NCBI GenBank assembly: GCA_036782275.1
Contig: DAIPZI010000001.1
Span: forward strand, 1 to 24,119
Length of the DNA: 24,119 nucleotides
Reading direction: 5' to 3'
From: Crocinitomicaceae bacterium
GTDB lineage: Bacteria > Bacteroidota > Bacteroidia > Flavobacteriales_D > Crocinitomicaceae
Below are positions 1-15,878 of this stretch, piece after piece. The notes under the pieces were generated by a model. The model worked only from the letters and a program-made list of their open reading frames with translations. It made no database searches and was not told where the DNA came from. The position numbers and the translations under genes are program-made. Numbering within the stretch: the stretch's first letter is position 1; every line of letters begins with the position of its first letter.

Positions 1-109
1 GGTGGGTCGACTAAAACTATTAAACTCTTATCAAACTAGAAAATGAAACTGCTTCTCCAAGCAGTTTTTATATCGCATAAGAAGTTGCCTGTGTCTCTCC
101 TTATTTCTA
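1..109 (-). ncRNA. Putative structured ncRNA, paralogue L (5' part only; 3' end runs off the left edge)
   Basis: 4-44 is identical to 476-516, 46-67 is identical to 517-538, and 68-109 is similar to 539-580. It keeps the hairpin AAACTGCTT-GGAG-AAGCAGTTT and the conserved upstream elements. There is no ORF >=60 aa. Confidence 0.62.
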
Positions 110-114
110 TTATA

Positions 115-158
115 AATGTAGAAAGTTAGTTCGGTTCTTTTATAATGAATGAATATTC
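115..158 (-). promoter_or_regulatory. Putative promoter/operator module of ncRNA copy L
   Basis: Minus strand reads GAATATTCAT-N28-TACATT. TACATTTA is one mismatch from the Bacteroidota -7 box TAnnTTTG. The layout is the same as at 585-628. Confidence 0.5.
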
Positions 159-395
159 GAGCAATTTTAACGAAAATAACAGCCTTTTGGTTTATTATTT
201 ATTTCCTATTGTTAGGCCTAAAAGGCTGATTAGATATAAATCTATTGGTTTTTTCTGTCCAATTATGATTCAAATAGATGTGTTACCGCTTTTCCTATAC
301 ATCTCTAGAATAAAAATTTAATGGAAACAAAATTTGTCCATGTTAAGATTTTAATGGCCTATTTGAGTTTGTCAATTAACTAAAAAAAAGGAAAT

Positions 396-415
396 AAAAA
401 AAGGTCTTTCGACCT
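396..415 (-). terminator. Intrinsic terminator of ncRNA copy R
   Basis: Minus strand reads AGGTC-GAAA-GACCT followed by a run of T. The plus strand has no T-tract after the hairpin, which fixes the orientation. Confidence 0.8.
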
Positions 416-575
416 GGGGTTGTGTTTTGGGTTTGATTAAGGAATACAGGAACCACTTATGCAATTGACCCGAGCGGGTCGACTAAAACTATTAAACTCT
501 TATCAAACTAGAAAATAAACTGCTTCTCCAAGCAGTTTGTTATTGCATAAGTAAGATTCCTGTGTCTCTCCTTAT
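396..575 (-). ncRNA. Putative ~180-nt structured ncRNA, paralogue R (complete)
   Basis: Closing stem: 568-573 with 439-444, 557-563 with 446-452, and 542-552 with 455-465. Hairpin A is 517-538 (9 bp, GGAG loop) and hairpin B is 467-480. A 36-nt unpaired segment spans 481-516. It has a 3' terminator and is duplicated at 4-109. Confidence 0.72.
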
Positions 576-584
576 TTCTAGTCT

Positions 585-628
585 AATGTATGATGTAAAT
601 TGGTTTTAAAAGGGATCGATGAATATTC
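585..628 (-). promoter_or_regulatory. Putative promoter/operator module of ncRNA copy R
   Basis: Minus strand reads GAATATTCAT-N28-TACATT (TACATTAG, one mismatch from TAnnTTTG). The spacing is identical to copy L although the spacer sequence has diverged. Confidence 0.5.
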
Positions 629-683: not shown

Positions 684-1133
684 TTAGTTATTAAAGGTAA
701 TTCTGCCACTGATCCAACTTGAATCTAGTTCGGTTTTGTGTTTTTTGTAAAAAGAAATGGCTGGCTCATTCCAATCGAGTACTTGCCAATCCAACCTTTT
801 TGCATTGCTACTTTCAGCTATTCTAATGATCTCTTGAAACAGCATTGATCCAACACCTAGTTTTCTACATTCTTCTTTTACAAAAAAATCTTCTAAATAA
901 AGACATTTACCTTTCCAAGTAGAGTAGGAGGTATAATACAAGGCAAAGCCAATAATATGATCTTCCTGAGATGCGACGATCGCACTACAAAGCTTGTCTT
1001 CAAATAAATGTTGTCTGAGTTGGGAAATTGTGTTGCTAACTTCTTGAGGTGCTTTTTCGTAAATAGCTAGTTCTTTAATCAATTGGAATATAGCGGTTTC
1101 ATCTCCGAATTGTGCTTTTCTTATCGAGATCAT
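684..1133 (-). CDS. GNAT family N-acetyltransferase, spermidine/spermine (diamine) N1-acetyltransferase-like
   Basis: 149 aa. It has GFALYYTSYSTWKGKCLYLEDFFV, the acetyl-CoA motif RKLGVG and the C-terminal WQVLDWNEPAISFY typical of SSAT-like GNATs. ATGA overlap with the sprA stop. Confidence 0.88.
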   Translation of the reverse strand: MISIRKAQFGDETAIFQLIKELAIYEKAPQEVSNTISQLRQHLFEDKLCSAIVASQEDHIIGFALYYTSYSTWKGKCLYLEDFFVKEECRKLGVGSMLFQEIIRIAESSNAKRLDWQVLDWNEPAISFYKKHKTELDSSWISGRITFNN

Positions 1134-4100
1134 TGTACACCCGCTAGATTAAACCTGATTTTGAATCCAGTATTAACATTACCAGTTGGGTAACTCGTTT
1201 GAACTTTTGGTGTATTCAGATTTTGGTCATAATAAAACATAAGTGTCAGATTGTTAGTCAGGTTATAATCTGCAGATATTTTTATTGACATTGTTTTTTG
1301 TCCTGCCGTAGCTTGATTGGTGTTTTCAACAATCTTTCGAATAACTGTGAGATTATCTCTAAATGAAAAATCAAACTTAATATTTACATCACTTGGCTTG
1401 ATGTTTTTGAAAGGAAGTTTTACATCCTTGATTCTGGCCGCAGTTCCAATAACGATTTCTTCTGATAATGACTCTGTAACTTGGTTGTTACTGAGCGCAA
1501 GAGTTGATTGCCTGTCTTTTTTATATTCGAAACGAGTTTGTAGGGTGTGTCCCAAAATTTTCCAGTTGGCATCAATACCGATTAATGGAGAAAAACGTTC
1601 GGAAAGCACGACGTTTTGAATTTGCATTTCTGGTATATAGTTGTTGTCTATATCTAGGTTATTTAAATTACCGTTTTGGTCTTGTGTTCCGTTTAAATTT
1701 GTTTGCATTCCATTTACAGAAACCGAAGAACTGTATCCGTGTCGAACAATAAATGATTTAAGGAATTTCTTTGTGAACTTATATTTTGTTAAGCCACTAT
1801 AATTGATCGACCAATTAGGCAGCGGCGTGTTTTGGAGAGGGTCGATGTTTTTACTGTTGATTCGGGAGTTGTTGTACGCGGTCATAAACGATCCAAGTAC
1901 GACATCCTGCTGTGACCCAGAATAACCCGAATAAAAGCCATTAGAGCTGATTAATGATGAATTAGAATTGTCTTGCCCGACTATTTGTGAAACTTGAGTA
2001 CGATTGTCGAGAAGGTTTTGAAACACCTCAGATTGATAATCGGCTCCTTCTTTTGTAAAAGCTGTACCCCATGTAATGGTTGAATACGTTAGTGTTGCGG
2101 TTTCAAATTGACTTTGTCCCTCAAATTGTGATGTGGCATCATTCCATCTATAAAATTCCCCACTATTCCGCGAATAATTTCGATTTAGATTCAGGTCAAT
2201 ATTTACATCTTTTAATGGTTCCAAAGTAGCTCTCATCGTAAGATTGTTAGAATGGGTTATTCCATATTGGGTATTCAAATTTTCATTTTGCACCAACCAG
2301 CTGTTTTGGGTGGCTAAATTAGATACGCTGTAATTATTTTTTCTGCCAAAGACATCATACCCTTGTTGCCCAAATATGAAACCAGACAGCTGAGTCGTTG
2401 AGGAGTTCATTCCTAAGAATCTCGTTTCTTCTCCATAGCCCGGTAATATTGTACCATCATTCAAGCTGTAGGTACCGGAAATGTTACGAACCGTCATGAT
2501 TAATCTTGCAAAAAATCCAGCAATTTTAGGAACTTTACGTTTCGCCCGTAATTCTTTTCGGGTTTTCTTTTTATACGTTCTGTTCTTTTTCTTGTAAGCT
2601 TTAAGCTGATCTCTATTCATGGAGTCTAGTGGCTTATCAGGTTCAAGGTCATCAACCTTTATCCATTCCCATTTTTCTTTGTCAGTATTCTCTCCAGCTT
2701 CTTCCTCACTCTCTCCATTAGATCGACTACCTGGACCATTTCTTGGGTTGATTCTTCCTCGTGAGCCTCTTCCATCAGCCAGCACTTTTTTGAAAAATGG
2801 GACTTTGTTGTAGAGGTTTACAAAATTGGCCTGAGCCGTAGTATTAATGCTTCTGTTGTTTTGTATGGTATTGCCAAATTCGCTCTGTCCAAGAGGTGCT
2901 CTTGCCCAATTGTAGCTCCCTGTATATTTTACGTTTGCGCTAATCCAATTGGTCAAAGGAAATTTGTCAAATGGGATTTTATAATTAATAGAATAATTGT
3001 GACCGTATTCCATGGTTTTTCCTAAAGTTGACATTTGAGATCGAATGGTGTCTAAGAATTCTCGATAACCGTCGGGGTTATTGATTCGATCTACACTATT
3101 ATTACCCTCTTCAAAAATGGACTTGTTAGAGGCAGAAAAGCTTGTTTTTAAATTCCTAGTAATATCGTATCCGATTTGATAATTTCTATTCCAGTCAAAT
3201 CGCTTTAAAAAGATGGGTTCAAATTCATAATCAGGGACAAGATTATTTCGGACCTGTCTCTCATTATAAATTCGAGAATAGTCATTTGTGAATGAGATGT
3301 TTTTTGGCATTAAGAACAGATTGAAGTCCTTGATGAGTTTTAAGTACTTCGATTTTTGGACAGGTTTCCATTTCTTAAATGGTTGGAACGGTTTTCCTTT
3401 GAACGTGTAATTATAATTTAACGCTCCTGTCCATGTTTTTGTAAGGTCTTTCTTCGTGTTGAAGTCTCTCTGAAGGTTTTCTGCATATGCATAACTCGCG
3501 GCCCAATTTGAGATTTTCCAAAAATGATTTTTTGAACCTGCTTTTGCTTCTTTACGAACATTTGCAAAATTGAAAGACTTTCTTTCATTAAAATCTTGAC
3601 CTAAGGCAGCTCTTTCTTTTCTTTTAGCGGGTTCGTAATCTGATAGCTTAATGTCTGGATTAAATGGGTCGTACTCTGGATTAATAATCCCGAGAGAATA
3701 ACCATAAAAGAAGGGTAGAGAAACCCGTGCTTGCTTTCCGAAGAATTGTCCAAGCTGTATGCTTGAATTGAAGTCAAAACCTATTTGCTCATTTCGTTGT
3801 CGGTCTTGAACACGGCTGTCTACGCTTCCCCAATTTATTCCTGAATAGTTTCCAGAGGCGTTGATATTCGCAAAGTCTGCGAGCTTTACTTGTACTTGAC
3901 CAACAGCTGCCGAACCTCCTTCACTTACGAAATCGGTCAATCTTAATTCATTAATCCAAGCGATGATGCATTCAGATTCTCCATCGTCAGGTTGCCAAAT
4001 ATTATTCGGGTCATTTTTTAATGGATTTCGAACACCAACCATTATGGTTTTTAGTCCTTGAAGATTTGGACTTCCTTTTACTTTAATTCGTCTATTGGCG

Positions 4101-7100
4101 TTTTTAGGGTCCGTTTTTGAATATTCAACAATGTATGAAATCCCATTAGCTCCCTCCTCGATATCCTGGTTCCTGTCTTTTTTCAATTGAATAAAATCAT
4201 CAAAAACAATTTCTATGTTATTATTTTCTGGCCAAATTTCCTCAGGAGTAGTGGATCCCCAGGGAGTGACATCTAGCGGAAGCTCATATTCGTAATAATT
4301 GTCTACAAAGTCGGTTCCTAATCGAATAAACATGGTCACATCTTTATTCTTAAGTGTATTTGGAATGACTTCTTCAGCGTGAGCAAACATTTTTAGTTTT
4401 TGATAGGTTCTCACATCAAACTGAACATTTCTATAGGCTGCTCTCGCATCTCCATCCTGTAGATTACAAATGTCCAAAACCAATGATTGCTCATTCATTT
4501 GTCTTTGGTATACTTGAGATGGATCAACCTCCCTTAGAATTCCTGGCGGAATTTCATACTTTACAGGGCTCCTTTGGTCATTCTCTTCGACATTGACAGC
4601 TCCAATATTAAAAGTGGTTAGGTTTGGGTCCTGTTGTATGCTCAGGCCGGGTTGACTTAAATCTTCATTAAATCTTCGCCATTCTCCTCGAATTAATTCA
4701 AGTCGAGCAAAACGCAATACCACCTCCTCGTCAAATTCTTTTAAAAACATTCGCATGAATCGAATAGATCTGAAATCTTGAATTCCATTCACTTTTTTCT
4801 CAAAGTCAGCAATCGGTACTTTGAATTGATACCAAGTTTCTGTTTTATTTCCGTTTTCGTAAATCTGCTTGTTAGTGATATAATTTTTACCTTCCTGAAG
4901 GTCCTCGGGCCTCATACTTACCTTATACTGAAAGTAGCTTTCGGTTTCGGATAGATTGTTATCTTGATTAATATCTTCGATATCAGGCATGTTCGTGCCT
5001 TGAGTGGGATATCCATTTGCATTTGCAGTATCAGACATTTCAGTGGTAGGAGAATTTCCTTCCATTCCGTTGAAGCGTTTGTATCTATTCAAAATGTCTG
5101 CTTCAACATTATCATAATTGTCATCCAAATAATAGTTATAATCATCATTGGAAGGGTCAGCAATCATTCTAGACTTTGTTGTTGCTGTAAGGTTAGGGTT
5201 GCTATTTACCCAATTCACATAATTTTCAAATGCGATTTTTTCCTCATCGTTTGTCCATCCATCTAAACCAACATCTTGGTTAAGCCTTGAAGCTGGGTCA
5301 TTATCAAAGGCGTTAACCACCACTTGTTGAGTGGATACTTTTGCCCACTCTGTAGTATCAATGTTGTCATTTAGAGATACCCCTTGTCCTGGCAGTCCAT
5401 TTTCAAAACTTTTCCTTGAATCAGGTAAAACATCTTCAGATATATTTCCTAAGTTGAAATAAAGGTCGCCACCATTATGAATGGCAAGGGTATCAACATT
5501 TTCTGCATCTTGATTGAATGGGTCCAAAACCCAAAACTGTATAAACTCAATGTTTGCTAATTCAAAATCATTGGTTGTAAGCCCACGCATAATTCCACCC
5601 CATCTATTTTCTGGATCGACAAAACGACCAACAGAGTCAATCGTATTTGTGGTGTCGTAATTGTACATTCCTCGTTCTTCCGGATAGAAAGCCAAATCCA
5701 ATACAGGAATGTTTTGAATGGATCCATATTGTAATTGTTGATTTGGAAAGATATCAACTTGATTTACCAATCGCATTCTGCTATCAGCAAGGATTTCACC
5801 TCCATTTTGTTTAATGTGGTCAGGCGTTAATGAATTACTTTGATAAAAAACGGGATCAATAACGTACCAGGATGTTTTGGCTCTTTTAAATCCTGTAGAA
5901 AGATCTTTTATTGAGGCTTCGGGAAATAAAGAGGGCTGGCCCTGAGGAATGGATGCTAAGCGCCACGCTGTTACAGTTCTAAGGTCTATTGCGCTCTGGG
6001 CAGCTTCAAAATCGTCAATATAGGACGTTCCTTCTTTATTGATGGCCCTAGGTTGTCCAGGGATGAGGTGAGCTACTTCCCCTGTAAAAGAGATTGTTGA
6101 TTTTTGTTTGGTCGAAATGACGGGAAGCAAATCAACAAGTTTTGTTAGAAAAGGAACTTCTGCTCTAAAAGCAAGGTCTGCACCGATTACATTATTCTTG
6201 AATGGCTCGCTTCCAAAGTCTACTTTTTGGGTTACCGGTCGTTCCATCATTCTGATCCATGTTGCACCGATTTTGAATTTATCACTAAAACGGTATTGAT
6301 AACGTCCACCAACCATAGACCGAGCTTGGAATCCAAATACGGAGTTGCTCTCAATAGAAATCTTGATTGGGGTATTGGATTCAAGAATTCCGGTATTCAA
6401 TATTTTTACACGTCCAAACGCATAATCAACGGTATAGTCAACTCCTTCTATCAATCGAATTCCTCCCGCAGTAACAGAGACTGAGCCTTCCGGGACAGAC
6501 ATGACATTTAACGGAATATCTGAAGTGATAGAAGATTGGTATTCTCCTTTAAATAAAAATCTATTTTTACTCGGAATTTGTTGGGCAGCTGTTTTTGTAG
6601 AGTCGTATAATTCATGAAATGCGATTTTATCTACAGTAATCTGTGGGATTCCCGCATCAGTCATTTTATCTGCAAGTGTTTTCCCGAAAGGTTCGACAGT
6701 TGAGAAGAATATACGTCCATTTTTTTTATTAATGGTTCCACCATTATCAATCTTGTTTCCTACCTGATTAAATGGCGCAAAATCAAAAACTCCATCCGAG
6801 AACGGTTGATTGTTTTGATTGATTTTATCCATGTCAATTAAGGTGACAATCTGCTTATTATCTACACCGTCAAGGGGCATAATTGGAAGCTCTACAGATG
6901 TTTCTGGATTGTTATATAATACATCGATCTTGAATCCCAATTGATCTACTTGATACGCACCAATGGAATACACATTTTTCATCATAAGGTCCCAAACTTT
7001 GTTGTTTGGATTTGTGATGGTTGGCTTTAATAATTTGAGAATTAAAGCATCTTGACCAGTTGATCCATCGGTTGAAAATTCACCAATCTGATATGTTTCT

Positions 7101-8485
7101 CCTCGATATGTATATTCGTATGAAACACCAAGTACTTCATCATTATTAAGTGGGGTATTTAGTGATATGTAACCGAGTAGAGCATTGTAGGTATAATCGC
7201 TTTGCTCTAATCGTCGTGCATTTTCTAATTTTTCGTATTCCACGGCTTGGTTAAAGGGGCCAGGAGAAGTAAATTGAGAGCTTAATACACCTACGGAATT
7301 TGCGAATCCTCTGACTAAAGGTTGATTAGAGGCCCAGGCGTAAAGTCCGTTAGATTCGTTTCTTGGTATGATATCCGTAGAATAATTTCCTGGATCTCCT
7401 TGGCAATTGGATTGTTGAGACTCACCAAGATCTGAAAATGCAATAATATTTCTCGTGTTTTCAATGCTATTGTTTCTATTGGTCACCCATACCTCAATTC
7501 TTGTAATATACATGGTTGAACTTACAACCGGAAGGGTGGACATGGCCTCATCATAATGTTGCTGATGATATAGATTTAAGAAGTAATGCCGATTTGCTTC
7601 ATAGTTGTCAGCGGTAAGCTCAAATTCTTGAACCTGTGATTTTCCACTTACGTTAATTTCATTCCTTTTTCCTTTAGAAGAAGCGGCGATTAGATCAACC
7701 GTAGCTCTTCCAAATTTAAGTTGTGTTTTGGCTCCAAATAAAGTTTGAGATCCTTGAATCAAAGACGTTGGAAGCTCTAAGGCGACATTACCTAAAGCAA
7801 TTTTTTGAAGAATCTGATCTTCATCCCCCGTATGTTCCAATTTGGAAATGTTTTCAAAATCAAATGAGGCTTGCGTATTGTATTTTGCTCCAATTTTTAG
7901 TTTTGTTCCAATCTGTCCCACAATATCCATGTTTATGTTCTGCTGGAAATCAAAACGAGTGACCCTTCTTTGTCGAAGAGGAAGTAGCGGATTGTCATAT
8001 CGAGAAGAGTTGGCTCCTAGAGAAAGTTCTATATTTCCCTGAGGTTTAATTGTTATTTTATCTGAACCGAAAAAATTCTCAAATGCTTTACTTCCTATTG
8101 TAATGGGCAATTCAAATGCTCTATTTTCCTCAGTCTCTTCTTCGATGAGTTCAACCCAGTCCTGTGACATCGATTTCTCTCTTTTGTATTCGAGATATTC
8201 TTCCAGTGTCATGGTAGATGGGTTTCTGTAATACAGCCCGCTACCTAATGATTCAGAAAAAATATAGGTTCCTGTCAAAGGGTCATAGGTGATGTTTTGA
8301 TTTAATCCTGATGGATCACCAAGATCAAACCTTTGATTGTCAATTTGAAACGGATTAACAGGATTCACAATTGGAAAAGGCAATTCAAATGGGTTGTTCT
8401 GCGAAAAGGCAGAAAAACCAATAAAAAGGAATAAAAAAATTAAACCCTTATTTAATTCAAAATGATATGTTCGCCTATTGTTCAA
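1130..8485 (-). CDS. sprA: T9SS outer-membrane translocon SprA (Sov)
   Basis: 2451 aa with an N-terminal signal peptide and a beta-barrel-type C-terminus (GFKIRFNL). It has SprA-typical segments (IKPQGNIELSLG, FELTADNYEANRHYF, DDFEAAQS, QDFRSIRFMRMFL) and the canonical position downstream of maeB-ruvA. The annotated start codon is TTG. Confidence 0.96.
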   Translation of the reverse strand: MNNRRTYHFELNKGLIFLFLFIGFSAFSQNNPFELPFPIVNPVNPFQIDNQRFDLGDPSGLNQNITYDPLTGTYIFSESLGSGLYYRNPSTMTLEEYLEYKREKSMSQDWVELIEEETEENRAFELPITIGSKAFENFFGSDKITIKPQGNIELSLGANSSRYDNPLLPLRQRRVTRFDFQQNINMDIVGQIGTKLKIGAKYNTQASFDFENISKLEHTGDEDQILQKIALGNVALELPTSLIQGSQTLFGAKTQLKFGRATVDLIAASSKGKRNEINVSGKSQVQEFELTADNYEANRHYFLNLYHQQHYDEAMSTLPVVSSTMYITRIEVWVTNRNNSIENTRNIIAFSDLGESQQSNCQGDPGNYSTDIIPRNESNGLYAWASNQPLVRGFANSVGVLSSQFTSPGPFNQAVEYEKLENARRLEQSDYTYNALLGYISLNTPLNNDEVLGVSYEYTYRGETYQIGEFSTDGSTGQDALILKLLKPTITNPNNKVWDLMMKNVYSIGAYQVDQLGFKIDVLYNNPETSVELPIMPLDGVDNKQIVTLIDMDKINQNNQPFSDGVFDFAPFNQVGNKIDNGGTINKKNGRIFFSTVEPFGKTLADKMTDAGIPQITVDKIAFHELYDSTKTAAQQIPSKNRFLFKGEYQSSITSDIPLNVMSVPEGSVSVTAGGIRLIEGVDYTVDYAFGRVKILNTGILESNTPIKISIESNSVFGFQARSMVGGRYQYRFSDKFKIGATWIRMMERPVTQKVDFGSEPFKNNVIGADLAFRAEVPFLTKLVDLLPVISTKQKSTISFTGEVAHLIPGQPRAINKEGTSYIDDFEAAQSAIDLRTVTAWRLASIPQGQPSLFPEASIKDLSTGFKRAKTSWYVIDPVFYQSNSLTPDHIKQNGGEILADSRMRLVNQVDIFPNQQLQYGSIQNIPVLDLAFYPEERGMYNYDTTNTIDSVGRFVDPENRWGGIMRGLTTNDFELANIEFIQFWVLDPFNQDAENVDTLAIHNGGDLYFNLGNISEDVLPDSRKSFENGLPGQGVSLNDNIDTTEWAKVSTQQVVVNAFDNDPASRLNQDVGLDGWTNDEEKIAFENYVNWVNSNPNLTATTKSRMIADPSNDDYNYYLDDNYDNVEADILNRYKRFNGMEGNSPTTEMSDTANANGYPTQGTNMPDIEDINQDNNLSETESYFQYKVSMRPEDLQEGKNYITNKQIYENGNKTETWYQFKVPIADFEKKVNGIQDFRSIRFMRMFLKEFDEEVVLRFARLELIRGEWRRFNEDLSQPGLSIQQDPNLTTFNIGAVNVEENDQRSPVKYEIPPGILREVDPSQVYQRQMNEQSLVLDICNLQDGDARAAYRNVQFDVRTYQKLKMFAHAEEVIPNTLKNKDVTMFIRLGTDFVDNYYEYELPLDVTPWGSTTPEEIWPENNNIEIVFDDFIQLKKDRNQDIEEGANGISYIVEYSKTDPKNANRRIKVKGSPNLQGLKTIMVGVRNPLKNDPNNIWQPDDGESECIIAWINELRLTDFVSEGGSAAVGQVQVKLADFANINASGNYSGINWGSVDSRVQDRQRNEQIGFDFNSSIQLGQFFGKQARVSLPFFYGYSLGIINPEYDPFNPDIKLSDYEPAKRKERAALGQDFNERKSFNFANVRKEAKAGSKNHFWKISNWAASYAYAENLQRDFNTKKDLTKTWTGALNYNYTFKGKPFQPFKKWKPVQKSKYLKLIKDFNLFLMPKNISFTNDYSRIYNERQVRNNLVPDYEFEPIFLKRFDWNRNYQIGYDITRNLKTSFSASNKSIFEEGNNSVDRINNPDGYREFLDTIRSQMSTLGKTMEYGHNYSINYKIPFDKFPLTNWISANVKYTGSYNWARAPLGQSEFGNTIQNNRSINTTAQANFVNLYNKVPFFKKVLADGRGSRGRINPRNGPGSRSNGESEEEAGENTDKEKWEWIKVDDLEPDKPLDSMNRDQLKAYKKKNRTYKKKTRKELRAKRKVPKIAGFFARLIMTVRNISGTYSLNDGTILPGYGEETRFLGMNSSTTQLSGFIFGQQGYDVFGRKNNYSVSNLATQNSWLVQNENLNTQYGITHSNNLTMRATLEPLKDVNIDLNLNRNYSRNSGEFYRWNDATSQFEGQSQFETATLTYSTITWGTAFTKEGADYQSEVFQNLLDNRTQVSQIVGQDNSNSSLISSNGFYSGYSGSQQDVVLGSFMTAYNNSRINSKNIDPLQNTPLPNWSINYSGLTKYKFTKKFLKSFIVRHGYSSSVSVNGMQTNLNGTQDQNGNLNNLDIDNNYIPEMQIQNVVLSERFSPLIGIDANWKILGHTLQTRFEYKKDRQSTLALSNNQVTESLSEEIVIGTAARIKDVKLPFKNIKPSDVNIKFDFSFRDNLTVIRKIVENTNQATAGQKTMSIKISADYNLTNNLTLMFYYDQNLNTPKVQTSYPTGNVNTGFKIRFNLAGVQ

Positions 8486-15542: not shown

Positions 15543-15878
15543 TTATTTCTGTTCAGTATTGTTGACCGCTAATAGAACCATGTTCTCTACTTTGAACTCT
15601 CTAATTTCTTTTATTTCACCTTCTGTTTTGAGGATGAGAAAGTAATTTCCGTCAATCAAATTATTTAAATGGATTTGCATCGATCCTTCCGTCATAATCG
15701 ATGGAATCATGATATTGTATTCAGATCTTAATTCAATCTCATCAATATGAGTATCATCCCATGAAATGGTAAGGCTCTTTGCAACCGCAGATTCTACAGG
15801 GTCTGTAGATGTTGAACTAATATTGTCATTTAATGGGCTAGCTAAAAGCGATAGGGCTAAAATGAATGGAGCAGTCAT
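15543..15878 (-). CDS. Small exported protein; C-terminal half resembles a T9SS CTD or DUF3244-type Ig-like fold
   Basis: 111 aa with a hydrophobic N-terminus (FILALSLLA). The C-terminal IHLNNLIDGNYFLILKTEGEIKEIREFKVE follows the LxxLxxGxYxLxIxxxxG...F pattern. A-rich start context and an upstream CATCTTTG box. Confidence 0.7.
   Translation of the reverse strand: MTAPFILALSLLASPLNDNISSTSTDPVESAVAKSLTISWDDTHIDEIELRSEYNIMIPSIMTEGSMQIHLNNLIDGNYFLILKTEGEIKEIREFKVENMVLLAVNNTEQK

Follow-up and report, generated by a model that had tools for sequence, protein, structure and literature searches.

This report concerns a family of structured RNA genes found at the left end of a 24,119-nucleotide stretch of DNA from a Crocinitomicaceae bacterium (NCBI GenBank assembly GCA_036782275.1, contig DAIPZI010000001.1, positions 1 to 24,119 of the forward strand), hereafter the window. 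In agreement with the first-pass annotation of this DNA, the region 1-683 contains no open reading frame (ORF) of at least 60 amino acids; the first gene in the ORF list is that of a GNAT acetyltransferase (684-1133, minus strand), which adjoins the sprA gene (1130-8485, 2451 aa). Two minus-strand copies of the RNA gene lie in this region, and the left flank, which was read from same-species marine metagenome contigs that encode the GNAT protein and reach past the window edge (e.g., L002), contains a third, so that the array does continue to the left, as had been suspected. On these contigs the region between the GNAT gene and the next protein-coding gene is ~1040 nt long and holds three RNA copies, not two, arranged head to tail; the array is bounded on one side by the sprA-GNAT operon and on the other by a convergent PF04199 “cyclase” gene, beyond which come glyS (GlyRS) and two more ORFs. 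These are very probably real, independently transcribed (predicted) structured RNA genes, and the family that they form is new and well supported, though its general kind is known; we find it almost only in Crocinitomicaceae and related Flavobacteriales metagenome-assembled genomes (MAGs). The best explanation overall, which we hold tentatively, is that of a trans-acting “sibling” regulatory small RNA (sRNA).

The two window copies are direct repeats spanning 4-115 and 476-586, with an offset of 471-472 nt that agrees with the ~471 nt first reported; the matching blocks are 4-47 and 476-519 (98%), 41-67 and 512-538 (93%), and 82-115 and 553-586 (88%). Copy 1, the complete one, is matched by our covariance model R1 at 418-588 (134.8 bits), and its sequence is identical in nine same-species metagenome contigs. 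Its minimum free energy (MFE) fold, at -56.3 kcal/mol with z = -5.9 and none of 200 shuffles equally stable, reproduces the fold that had been drawn by eye. The features of the two window copies and of the spacer between them are the following.

396-577, minus strand: copy 1, complete RNA gene, ~182 nt when measured from its predicted start through the U-run of the terminator.
616-627, minus strand: copy 1 conserved upstream promoter element, AATATTCATCGA (column consensus of 193 copies and four-species array alignment).
583-590, minus strand: copy 1 promoter-like -7 box, TACATTAG (Bacteroidetes consensus TAnnTTTG).
542-573, minus strand: copy 1 closing-rod 5' arm, with P0 at 573-568, an AGAC internal loop at 567-564, and P1/P2 at 563-542 with a UU bulge (MFE fold).
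439-466, minus strand: copy 1 closing-rod 3' arm (MFE fold and covariation).
573-568 with 444-439, minus strand: copy 1 P0 pairing, AAGGAG with UUCCUU (MFE fold).
563-555 with 454-446, minus strand: copy 1 rod pairing, ACAGGAAUC with GGUUCCUGU (MFE fold).
552-542 with 465-455, minus strand: copy 1 rod pairing, ACUUAUGCAAU with AUUGCAUAAGU (MFE fold).
517-538, minus strand: copy 1 hairpin A, 9 bp, with the GGAG loop at 529-526 (MFE fold and covariation).
481-516, minus strand: copy 1 unpaired C-poor core, 36 nt, with the 28-mer TAGTTTGATAAGAGTTTAATAGTTTTAG at 510-483 (MFE fold).
467-480, minus strand: copy 1 hairpin B, GACCC-GCUC-GGGUC (MFE fold).
415-438, minus strand: copy 1 unpaired A/C-rich tail, 23-24 nt (unpaired in the MFE and centroid folds).
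396-414, minus strand: copy 1 intrinsic terminator, GGUC-GAAA-GACC followed by U7 (terminator scan).
158-395, no strand: non-conserved spacer between the copies, with chance ORFs of at most 58 aa only and many substitutions and indels in the four-species alignment.
146-157, minus strand: copy 2 upstream promoter element, AATATTCATTCA (four-species alignment and column consensus).
114-121, minus strand: copy 2 -7 box, TACATTTA, kept in four species.
1-107, minus strand: copy 2, 5' two-thirds, with hairpin A at 67-46 and the core 28-mer at 38-11; the window edge cuts hairpin B.

Copy 2 is matched by model R1 at 1-117 with 114.6 bits as a 3'-truncated hit, and is found in full at L002 8537-8738. 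Its missing 3' arm, read from the same-species contigs, is AUUGCAUAAGAAGUUCCUGU, and this pairs with the altered 5' arm ACAGG-C-AACUUCUUAUGCGAU through 5 bp, a bulged C, and 15 bp including one G.U, which bears out the specific prediction that the arm lying outside the window would complement the altered one; the full copy folds at -67.2 kcal/mol (z = -8.0). Copy 3 lies just left of the window, at L002 8862-8994. Its hairpin A (AUAUACC-UUCCU-GGUAUAU), hairpin B (AGCCU/AGGCU), and rod sequences all differ from those of the other copies, and it retains the same architecture (z = -5.7) around the identical 28-nt core. The core, reported earlier as invariant between two copies, is thus the same 28-mer in all three paralogues of the window species. 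Within the arrays, the cyclase-proximal, or “type-3”, copy is the most divergent member; copy 3 and the cyclase-proximal copies of L076, L079, L092, and L097 are without the 5' AAGGAGAGA leader and without a terminator. The hairpin-A loop of type-3 copies is pyrimidine-rich (UUCCU, UUCCUU, or UUUCUU) and complementary to the AAGGAG/GGAG of the other two copies, and a loop-loop or sponge interaction between paralogues is conceivable from this complementarity.

The family-wide structure was assessed on a MAFFT alignment of 98 distinct copies, in which the manually defined helices P0, P1, P2, and P3 and hairpin A were scored, because RNAalifold, when run on the unedited alignment, gave an incomplete structure, the marine and freshwater members being different around hairpin B and P3. 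In this set 87.5% of the cells are paired, as against 39-48% in controls with the partners slid by 1-3 columns, and double-sided changes affect 24 pairs and 182 cells; no shuffle out of 500 reaches any of the five measures. Such changes occur in 12 of the 15 pairs of P2 (e.g., G-C 58 and A-U 29, or C-G 57 and U-A 34) and in 4 of the 6 pairs of hairpin A, where 99.7% of the cells are paired. At the tip of the rod stand the GGAG-loop hairpin, the unpaired core, which is 30-36 nt long, U/G/A-rich, and nearly C-free, and the second small hairpin, B, whose pairing is kept despite changes of sequence (GACCC/GGGUC, AGCCU/AGGCU, GGUCC/GGACC, UCC-GAAA-GGA). An unpaired A/C-rich tail, with motifs conserved within clades, precedes the terminator. 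Helix P3 is present in freshwater members only, and encloses hairpin A and the core as a loop.

Selection on the RNA, which the first-pass annotation had proposed, is indicated by this covariation and by the contrast with the surrounding DNA. In the whole-array alignment of four species, the RNA genes and their promoter elements are conserved and the spacers are full of substitutions and indels, with no conservation of the spacer ORFs; the neighbouring proteins are merely 48-77% identical across the same genomes. The spacer had been described as ~220 nt of unrelated sequence: its lack of conservation stands, whereas its length does not, as the distance from the copy 1 terminator to the start of copy 2 is ~290 nt (395-108). 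At 181-235 the spacer carries, on the minus strand, an inverted repeat CAGCCUUUU…AAAAGGCUG followed by UUAUUUUCG, and the region of its 3' arm (AAUAAUAAAYCAAAAGGCUGUUAUUUUC) is among the few spacer stretches that are conserved, in three of the four species.

The view of the copies as separately transcribed genes is upheld as a prediction, each main copy having its own promoter-like box and terminator. In 160 of 193 distinct copies the AUAAGG anchor is preceded, at a distance of 5-8 nt, by the end of a box of the form TAnnTT[T/A][G/A]; the chance expectation, which we estimate from base composition and with no dedicated tool, is about 1-2%. Some 26 nt upstream of this -7 box, nearly every copy (column consensus of the 193 copies, loci L010-L205) carries the element GAT[A/G]TTCATTTG. 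The usual -33 element of Bacteroidetes is TTTG, and the conserved element sits further upstream, which suggests a putative activator site or an unusual promoter class. At the other end, a hairpin followed by a U-run is found in all 159 main copies and all 6 divergent ones (165/165), and the predicted RNA is 168-241 nt long, with a median of 205.

The distribution of the family was followed in two ways. A search of 185,579 species-representative genomes for the 20-nt core GTTTGATAAGAGTTTAATAG gave 101 stretches, and almost all of these belong to MAGs from freshwater and marine samples labelled Crocinitomicaceae, Flavobacteriales UBA952, Lishizhenia, Cryomorphaceae, or Bacteroidota. A match in Desulfurella falls in a coding region and was judged to be due to chance, and the viral contigs gave no match to the core. 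A census of copies with model R1 and an nhmmer profile returned 257 copies in 195 loci, always as a single same-strand array per locus, with one copy in 157 loci, two in 15, three in 22, and four in 1, spaced by 240-520 nt. Freshwater members have one copy and marine clades two to four. The 20-mer is confined to a single locus in MAG contigs of 1.86 and 2.2 Mb, and the search with R1 detected no further copies in the remaining 23 kb of the window. In L044, a fourth array member at 5879-6042 has an intact rod and tail and a mutated core (…GUAGUUUUAUAAUUCGUAAGAGUUAUUAUUAAUCGG…); judged from its sequence, it is probably a decaying paralogue or pseudogene.

To avoid circularity in judging the conservation of the core, metagenomes were also scanned with a pattern consisting only of the 5' leader and the hairpin-A loop. 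This core-independent scan returned 95 stretches with 105 copies, of which 82 share the identical 25-mer TAGTTTGATAAGAGTTTAATAGTTT within the C-free unpaired core. The remaining 23 make up a short-core subfamily (…GGCAG-AAAAGUUUCUAGUCAAAAGUUUUUUCG…) that agrees with the others in its leader, hairpin A, tail motif, terminator, and cyclase neighbour; in its members (L113, L117, L124, and 20 other metagenome loci) the unpaired region is ~27 nt long (AAAAGUUUCUAGUCAAAAGUUUUUUCG), hairpin B is absent, and the tail motif reads ACCACUCAGGC-N4-GCCUACUAC. The long core is thus extremely conserved in a large clade, yet not universal. Counts of the motif AGUUU are 4 for the long core, 5 for the L011 group, and 2 for the short-core subfamily. 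Among composition-matched shuffles, 4-5% contain an equally frequent 5-mer; the repetition has a shuffle probability of 0.013-0.05 in long cores, and that of the short core is not significant. Stop codons are present in all three frames of the RNA strand of the core, which could arise by chance in a sequence made of U, A, and G only.

The family had not been recognised in the first-pass annotation, and no known family claims it. Rfam 15 (4227 models, including 6S, 6S-Flavo, Flavo-1, retron, and Y-RNA-like ones) gave no match at the gathering threshold over the whole window; with E values up to 10, positions 1-700 returned only sub-threshold noise of at most 20 bits against thresholds of 39-113, and with E up to 1 the freshwater, short-core, marine, and divergent variants returned nothing relevant. 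ARAGORN detected no tRNA or tmRNA, and in the library searched there was no paper that ties Crocinitomicaceae to sRNAs or contains the core sequence. Type III toxin-antitoxin RNA arrays consist of ~36-nt tandem repeats directly upstream of a toxin endoribonuclease gene; the present array was set apart from them by its period of 240-520 nt, by a promoter and terminator for each unit, and by a next gene that is convergent.

The genes around the array have been conserved to different degrees. In most loci the RNA is convergent to the cyclase gene and lies 120-130 nt from the cyclase stop codon. In L010, L020, L022, L030, L047, L081, and other freshwater loci, an insertion of ~4.5 kb separates the RNA from the GNAT gene, and the RNA still adjoins the cyclase gene. 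Several genomes have no cyclase gene near the RNA, whose neighbours are genes for cyanophycin synthetase, RNase E/G, or PIG-L instead, and in another clade it lies downstream of a gene for a secreted YHYH protein sorted by the type IX secretion system, with varying genes 3' of the RNA. In L105 the RNA faces a convergent gene (2938-4194) for an RNase E/G-family protein, a single case that may be a coincidence. The cyclase linkage is therefore strong, not universal, and the other gene contexts have nothing in common. The association with sprA is incidental, because the convergent cyclase gene is the neighbour that is conserved, also where ~4.5 kb lies between the RNA and the GNAT gene, and because the other contexts exist. 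Two further observations concern the window itself: the start codon of the GNAT gene overlaps the sprA stop by 4 nt (1130-1133), which suggests translational coupling, and a 111-aa ORF at 15543-15878 is without a Pfam match.

As to what the RNA does, two of the roles that had been listed at the outset, a paralogous trans-acting sRNA and a protein sponge, are the live options. In the mechanism that we propose, the RNA would act in trans as a regulator, with the stable, protective rod as the scaffold on which the invariant single strand, and perhaps the tail, is presented. The U-rich strand, possibly helped by the tail, would pair with A-rich, Shine-Dalgarno-less translation-initiation regions, of the kind typical of Bacteroidota, in several mRNAs. 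The tandem paralogues would then count as “sibling” sRNAs, which raise the dosage or are regulated differently, as is the case for Qrr, LhrC, AbcR1/2, PrrF1/2, and OmrA/B. Base-pairing sibling sRNAs typically come as tandem paralogues with a long unpaired stretch in common that does not vary; the invariant region of Qrr, for instance, is 32 nt long. The present family has three paralogues here and one to four elsewhere, a promoter box and terminator of its own for each main copy, and an identical shared core. The base-pairing mechanism specifically deserves slightly more caution than the trans-acting role as such, and we would call it a possibility to work with.

The resemblance to the known sibling sRNAs (Qrr1-5 of Vibrio, LhrC1-5 of Listeria, AbcR1/2, PrrF1/2, OmrA/B) covers the number of paralogues, which is two to four per genome and often in tandem; the promoter and intrinsic terminator of each copy; the long identical unpaired stretch combined with stems and tails that differ; and the confinement of the family to one bacterial family. 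Unlike them, the Crocinitomicaceae RNA has no sequence or Rfam relationship to any of these, is larger (~180-205 nt), and is built on a rod of ~26 bp; its hosts differ too, as the Bacteroidota are, to our knowledge, without Hfq-type biology and largely without Shine-Dalgarno-led initiation. From the same phylum come GibS and the FopS family, described in Bacteroides, and the Flavo-1 motif, which are stand-alone sRNA genes with Bacteroidetes-type promoters in a phylum that is not known to have Hfq, FopS being likewise paralogous; here it is the host lineage, the sequence, and the architecture that differ, and there is no Rfam match to Flavo-1.

Several results weigh against the sibling-sRNA explanation. 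The complementarity of core and tail to the 12 initiation regions of the window, computed with RNAduplex, is at background, and so is that found by a search for k-mer complements in 1.58 Mb of related loci, a tiny part of the genomes, where the 12-mer complement matches are due to chance or are species-specific. At least 25 unpaired nucleotides are invariant, which is longer than most sRNA seeds, and the short-core subfamily retains just UUUCUAGU and AAGUUUU of the core. The number of AGUUU units varies from 2 to 5 per core, a pattern that also fits a protein-binding platform. Finally, 26 of the 28 type-3 copies directly adjoin the stop codon of the cyclase gene and are without a terminator, and these cyclase-proximal copies may work differently because the terminator is absent.

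In the other live option, the RNA would sequester a protein as a sponge or decoy through the RAGUUU units of its core, possibly together with the GGAG loop and the 5' AAGGAG; its partner would possibly be several protomers of an RRM, cold-shock, or S1/KH-type protein, or an RNase E/G-type enzyme lured by RN|WUU sites, in the manner of CsrB/RsmZ/CrcZ. We regard this as rather unlikely, while recognising that it accounts for the retention of the AGUUU unit as the number of units changes (2, 4, or 5), for an invariant stretch beyond the usual seed length, and for the absence of an mRNA target among the sequences searched. The likeness to CsrB/RsmZ and CrcZ consists in a short unpaired motif (here RAGUUU and GGA-containing loops) whose copy number varies between homologues; the difference is that the present RNA has only 2-5 units, whose repetition is of weak significance at best, and a single rod instead of many hairpins. 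We know of no CsrA or Crc partner in these bacteria, and no gene for an RNA-binding protein is consistently linked to the array, the RNase E/G gene being near in one context only. A particular form of decoy, which we consider improbable, would titrate a ribosome-biogenesis factor, a 5'-end maturation nuclease, or another single-strand RNA-binding protein. The invariant C-free strand carries two tandem units, AGUUUGAUA and AGAGUUUAAUA, which presumably resemble the universally conserved 5' end of 16S rRNA, AGAGUUUGAUC (the 27F primer site), as do AGUUUGAU and AGAGUUUAAU in the core at 483-510, a likeness that may be due to chance; the two units also fit the RN|WUU preference of RNase E/G. Such a decoy, if real, would represent a new type of global regulator, in a phylum that is not known to have Hfq, ProQ, or CsrA.

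The remaining explanations follow from the locus or from the general shape of the RNA. Regulation of the PF04199 cyclase gene, by convergent transcription, by pairing at the 3' end, or by a terminator-less third copy reading antisense, would agree with the orientation and the 120-130 nt spacing that persist even across the ~4.5-kb insertion, and with the missing terminators of 26 of 28 cyclase-proximal copies; we find it decidedly improbable, given that the main copies end in strong terminators, that the genomes with cyanophycin synthetase, RNase E/G, or PIG-L neighbours have the RNA with no cyclase near, and that tight spacing alone can preserve synteny. A 6S-like RNA that binds the RNA polymerase holoenzyme by mimicking an open promoter, also among the roles first listed, has found no support and is highly improbable. 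With 6S and 6S-Flavo (RF00013, RF01685) the family shares its size of ~180-205 nt, a long closing rod, a large unpaired region, and one conserved locus per genome; however, neither model gives a match at E up to 10 with permissive filters, and tandem triplication with a variable core length is untypical of 6S. The architecture differs as well, with 30-36 unpaired nucleotides on the 3' side and 3-6 on the 5' side; the unpaired region is one-sided, and enclosed by P3 in the freshwater members, and therefore forms no two-sided central bubble. An orphan riboswitch-like sensor, with the conserved junction as ligand pocket and the terminator as expression platform, is still less probable: the highly conserved unpaired nucleotides in a multi-helix junction followed by a terminator recall one, but the terminator is followed by no gene in the same direction, what is conserved is a long, linear strand free of C that is halved in one subfamily, and the RNA has a conserved tail of its own.

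Least probable of all are readings in which the element would not be an RNA gene of this kind, namely a miniature inverted-repeat transposable element (MITE) with terminal inverted repeats, a retron msr-msd, or a small protein gene on the opposite strand. The closing stem does look like imperfect DNA inverted repeats, and one frame on the strand opposite the core is open. The mobile-repeat reading was rejected as all copies stand in tandem on the same strand, at one syntenic locus, with none dispersed, compensatory changes hold the pairing as the sequence changes, in the manner of RNA stems, and the promoter and terminator signals are strand-specific. The flanks, on the left as read from the same-species contigs and on the right with GNAT and SprA, contain no gene for a reverse transcriptase, nuclease, or transposase; the suggestion of a retron-like template is refuted by the lack of a reverse transcriptase there, and none appears in the other gene contexts. 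The peptide reading was dropped in view of the absence of a conserved start codon, a commonest open stretch of 11 codons, and the invariance of all codon positions.

Crocinitomicaceae are common in lakes, rivers, and coastal seas, and riboregulation in their phylum is poorly known because the Bacteroidota are, as far as is known, without the classical chaperones and mostly without Shine-Dalgarno-led initiation. Against this background the RNA family, with its ~200 loci, stands out for an unusually long invariant single strand and for its clade-specific amplification. An Rfam entry could be started from the alignment and covariance model, which would also allow direct tests of the family in public metatranscriptomes and in cultured relatives such as Fluviicola and Crocinitomix.

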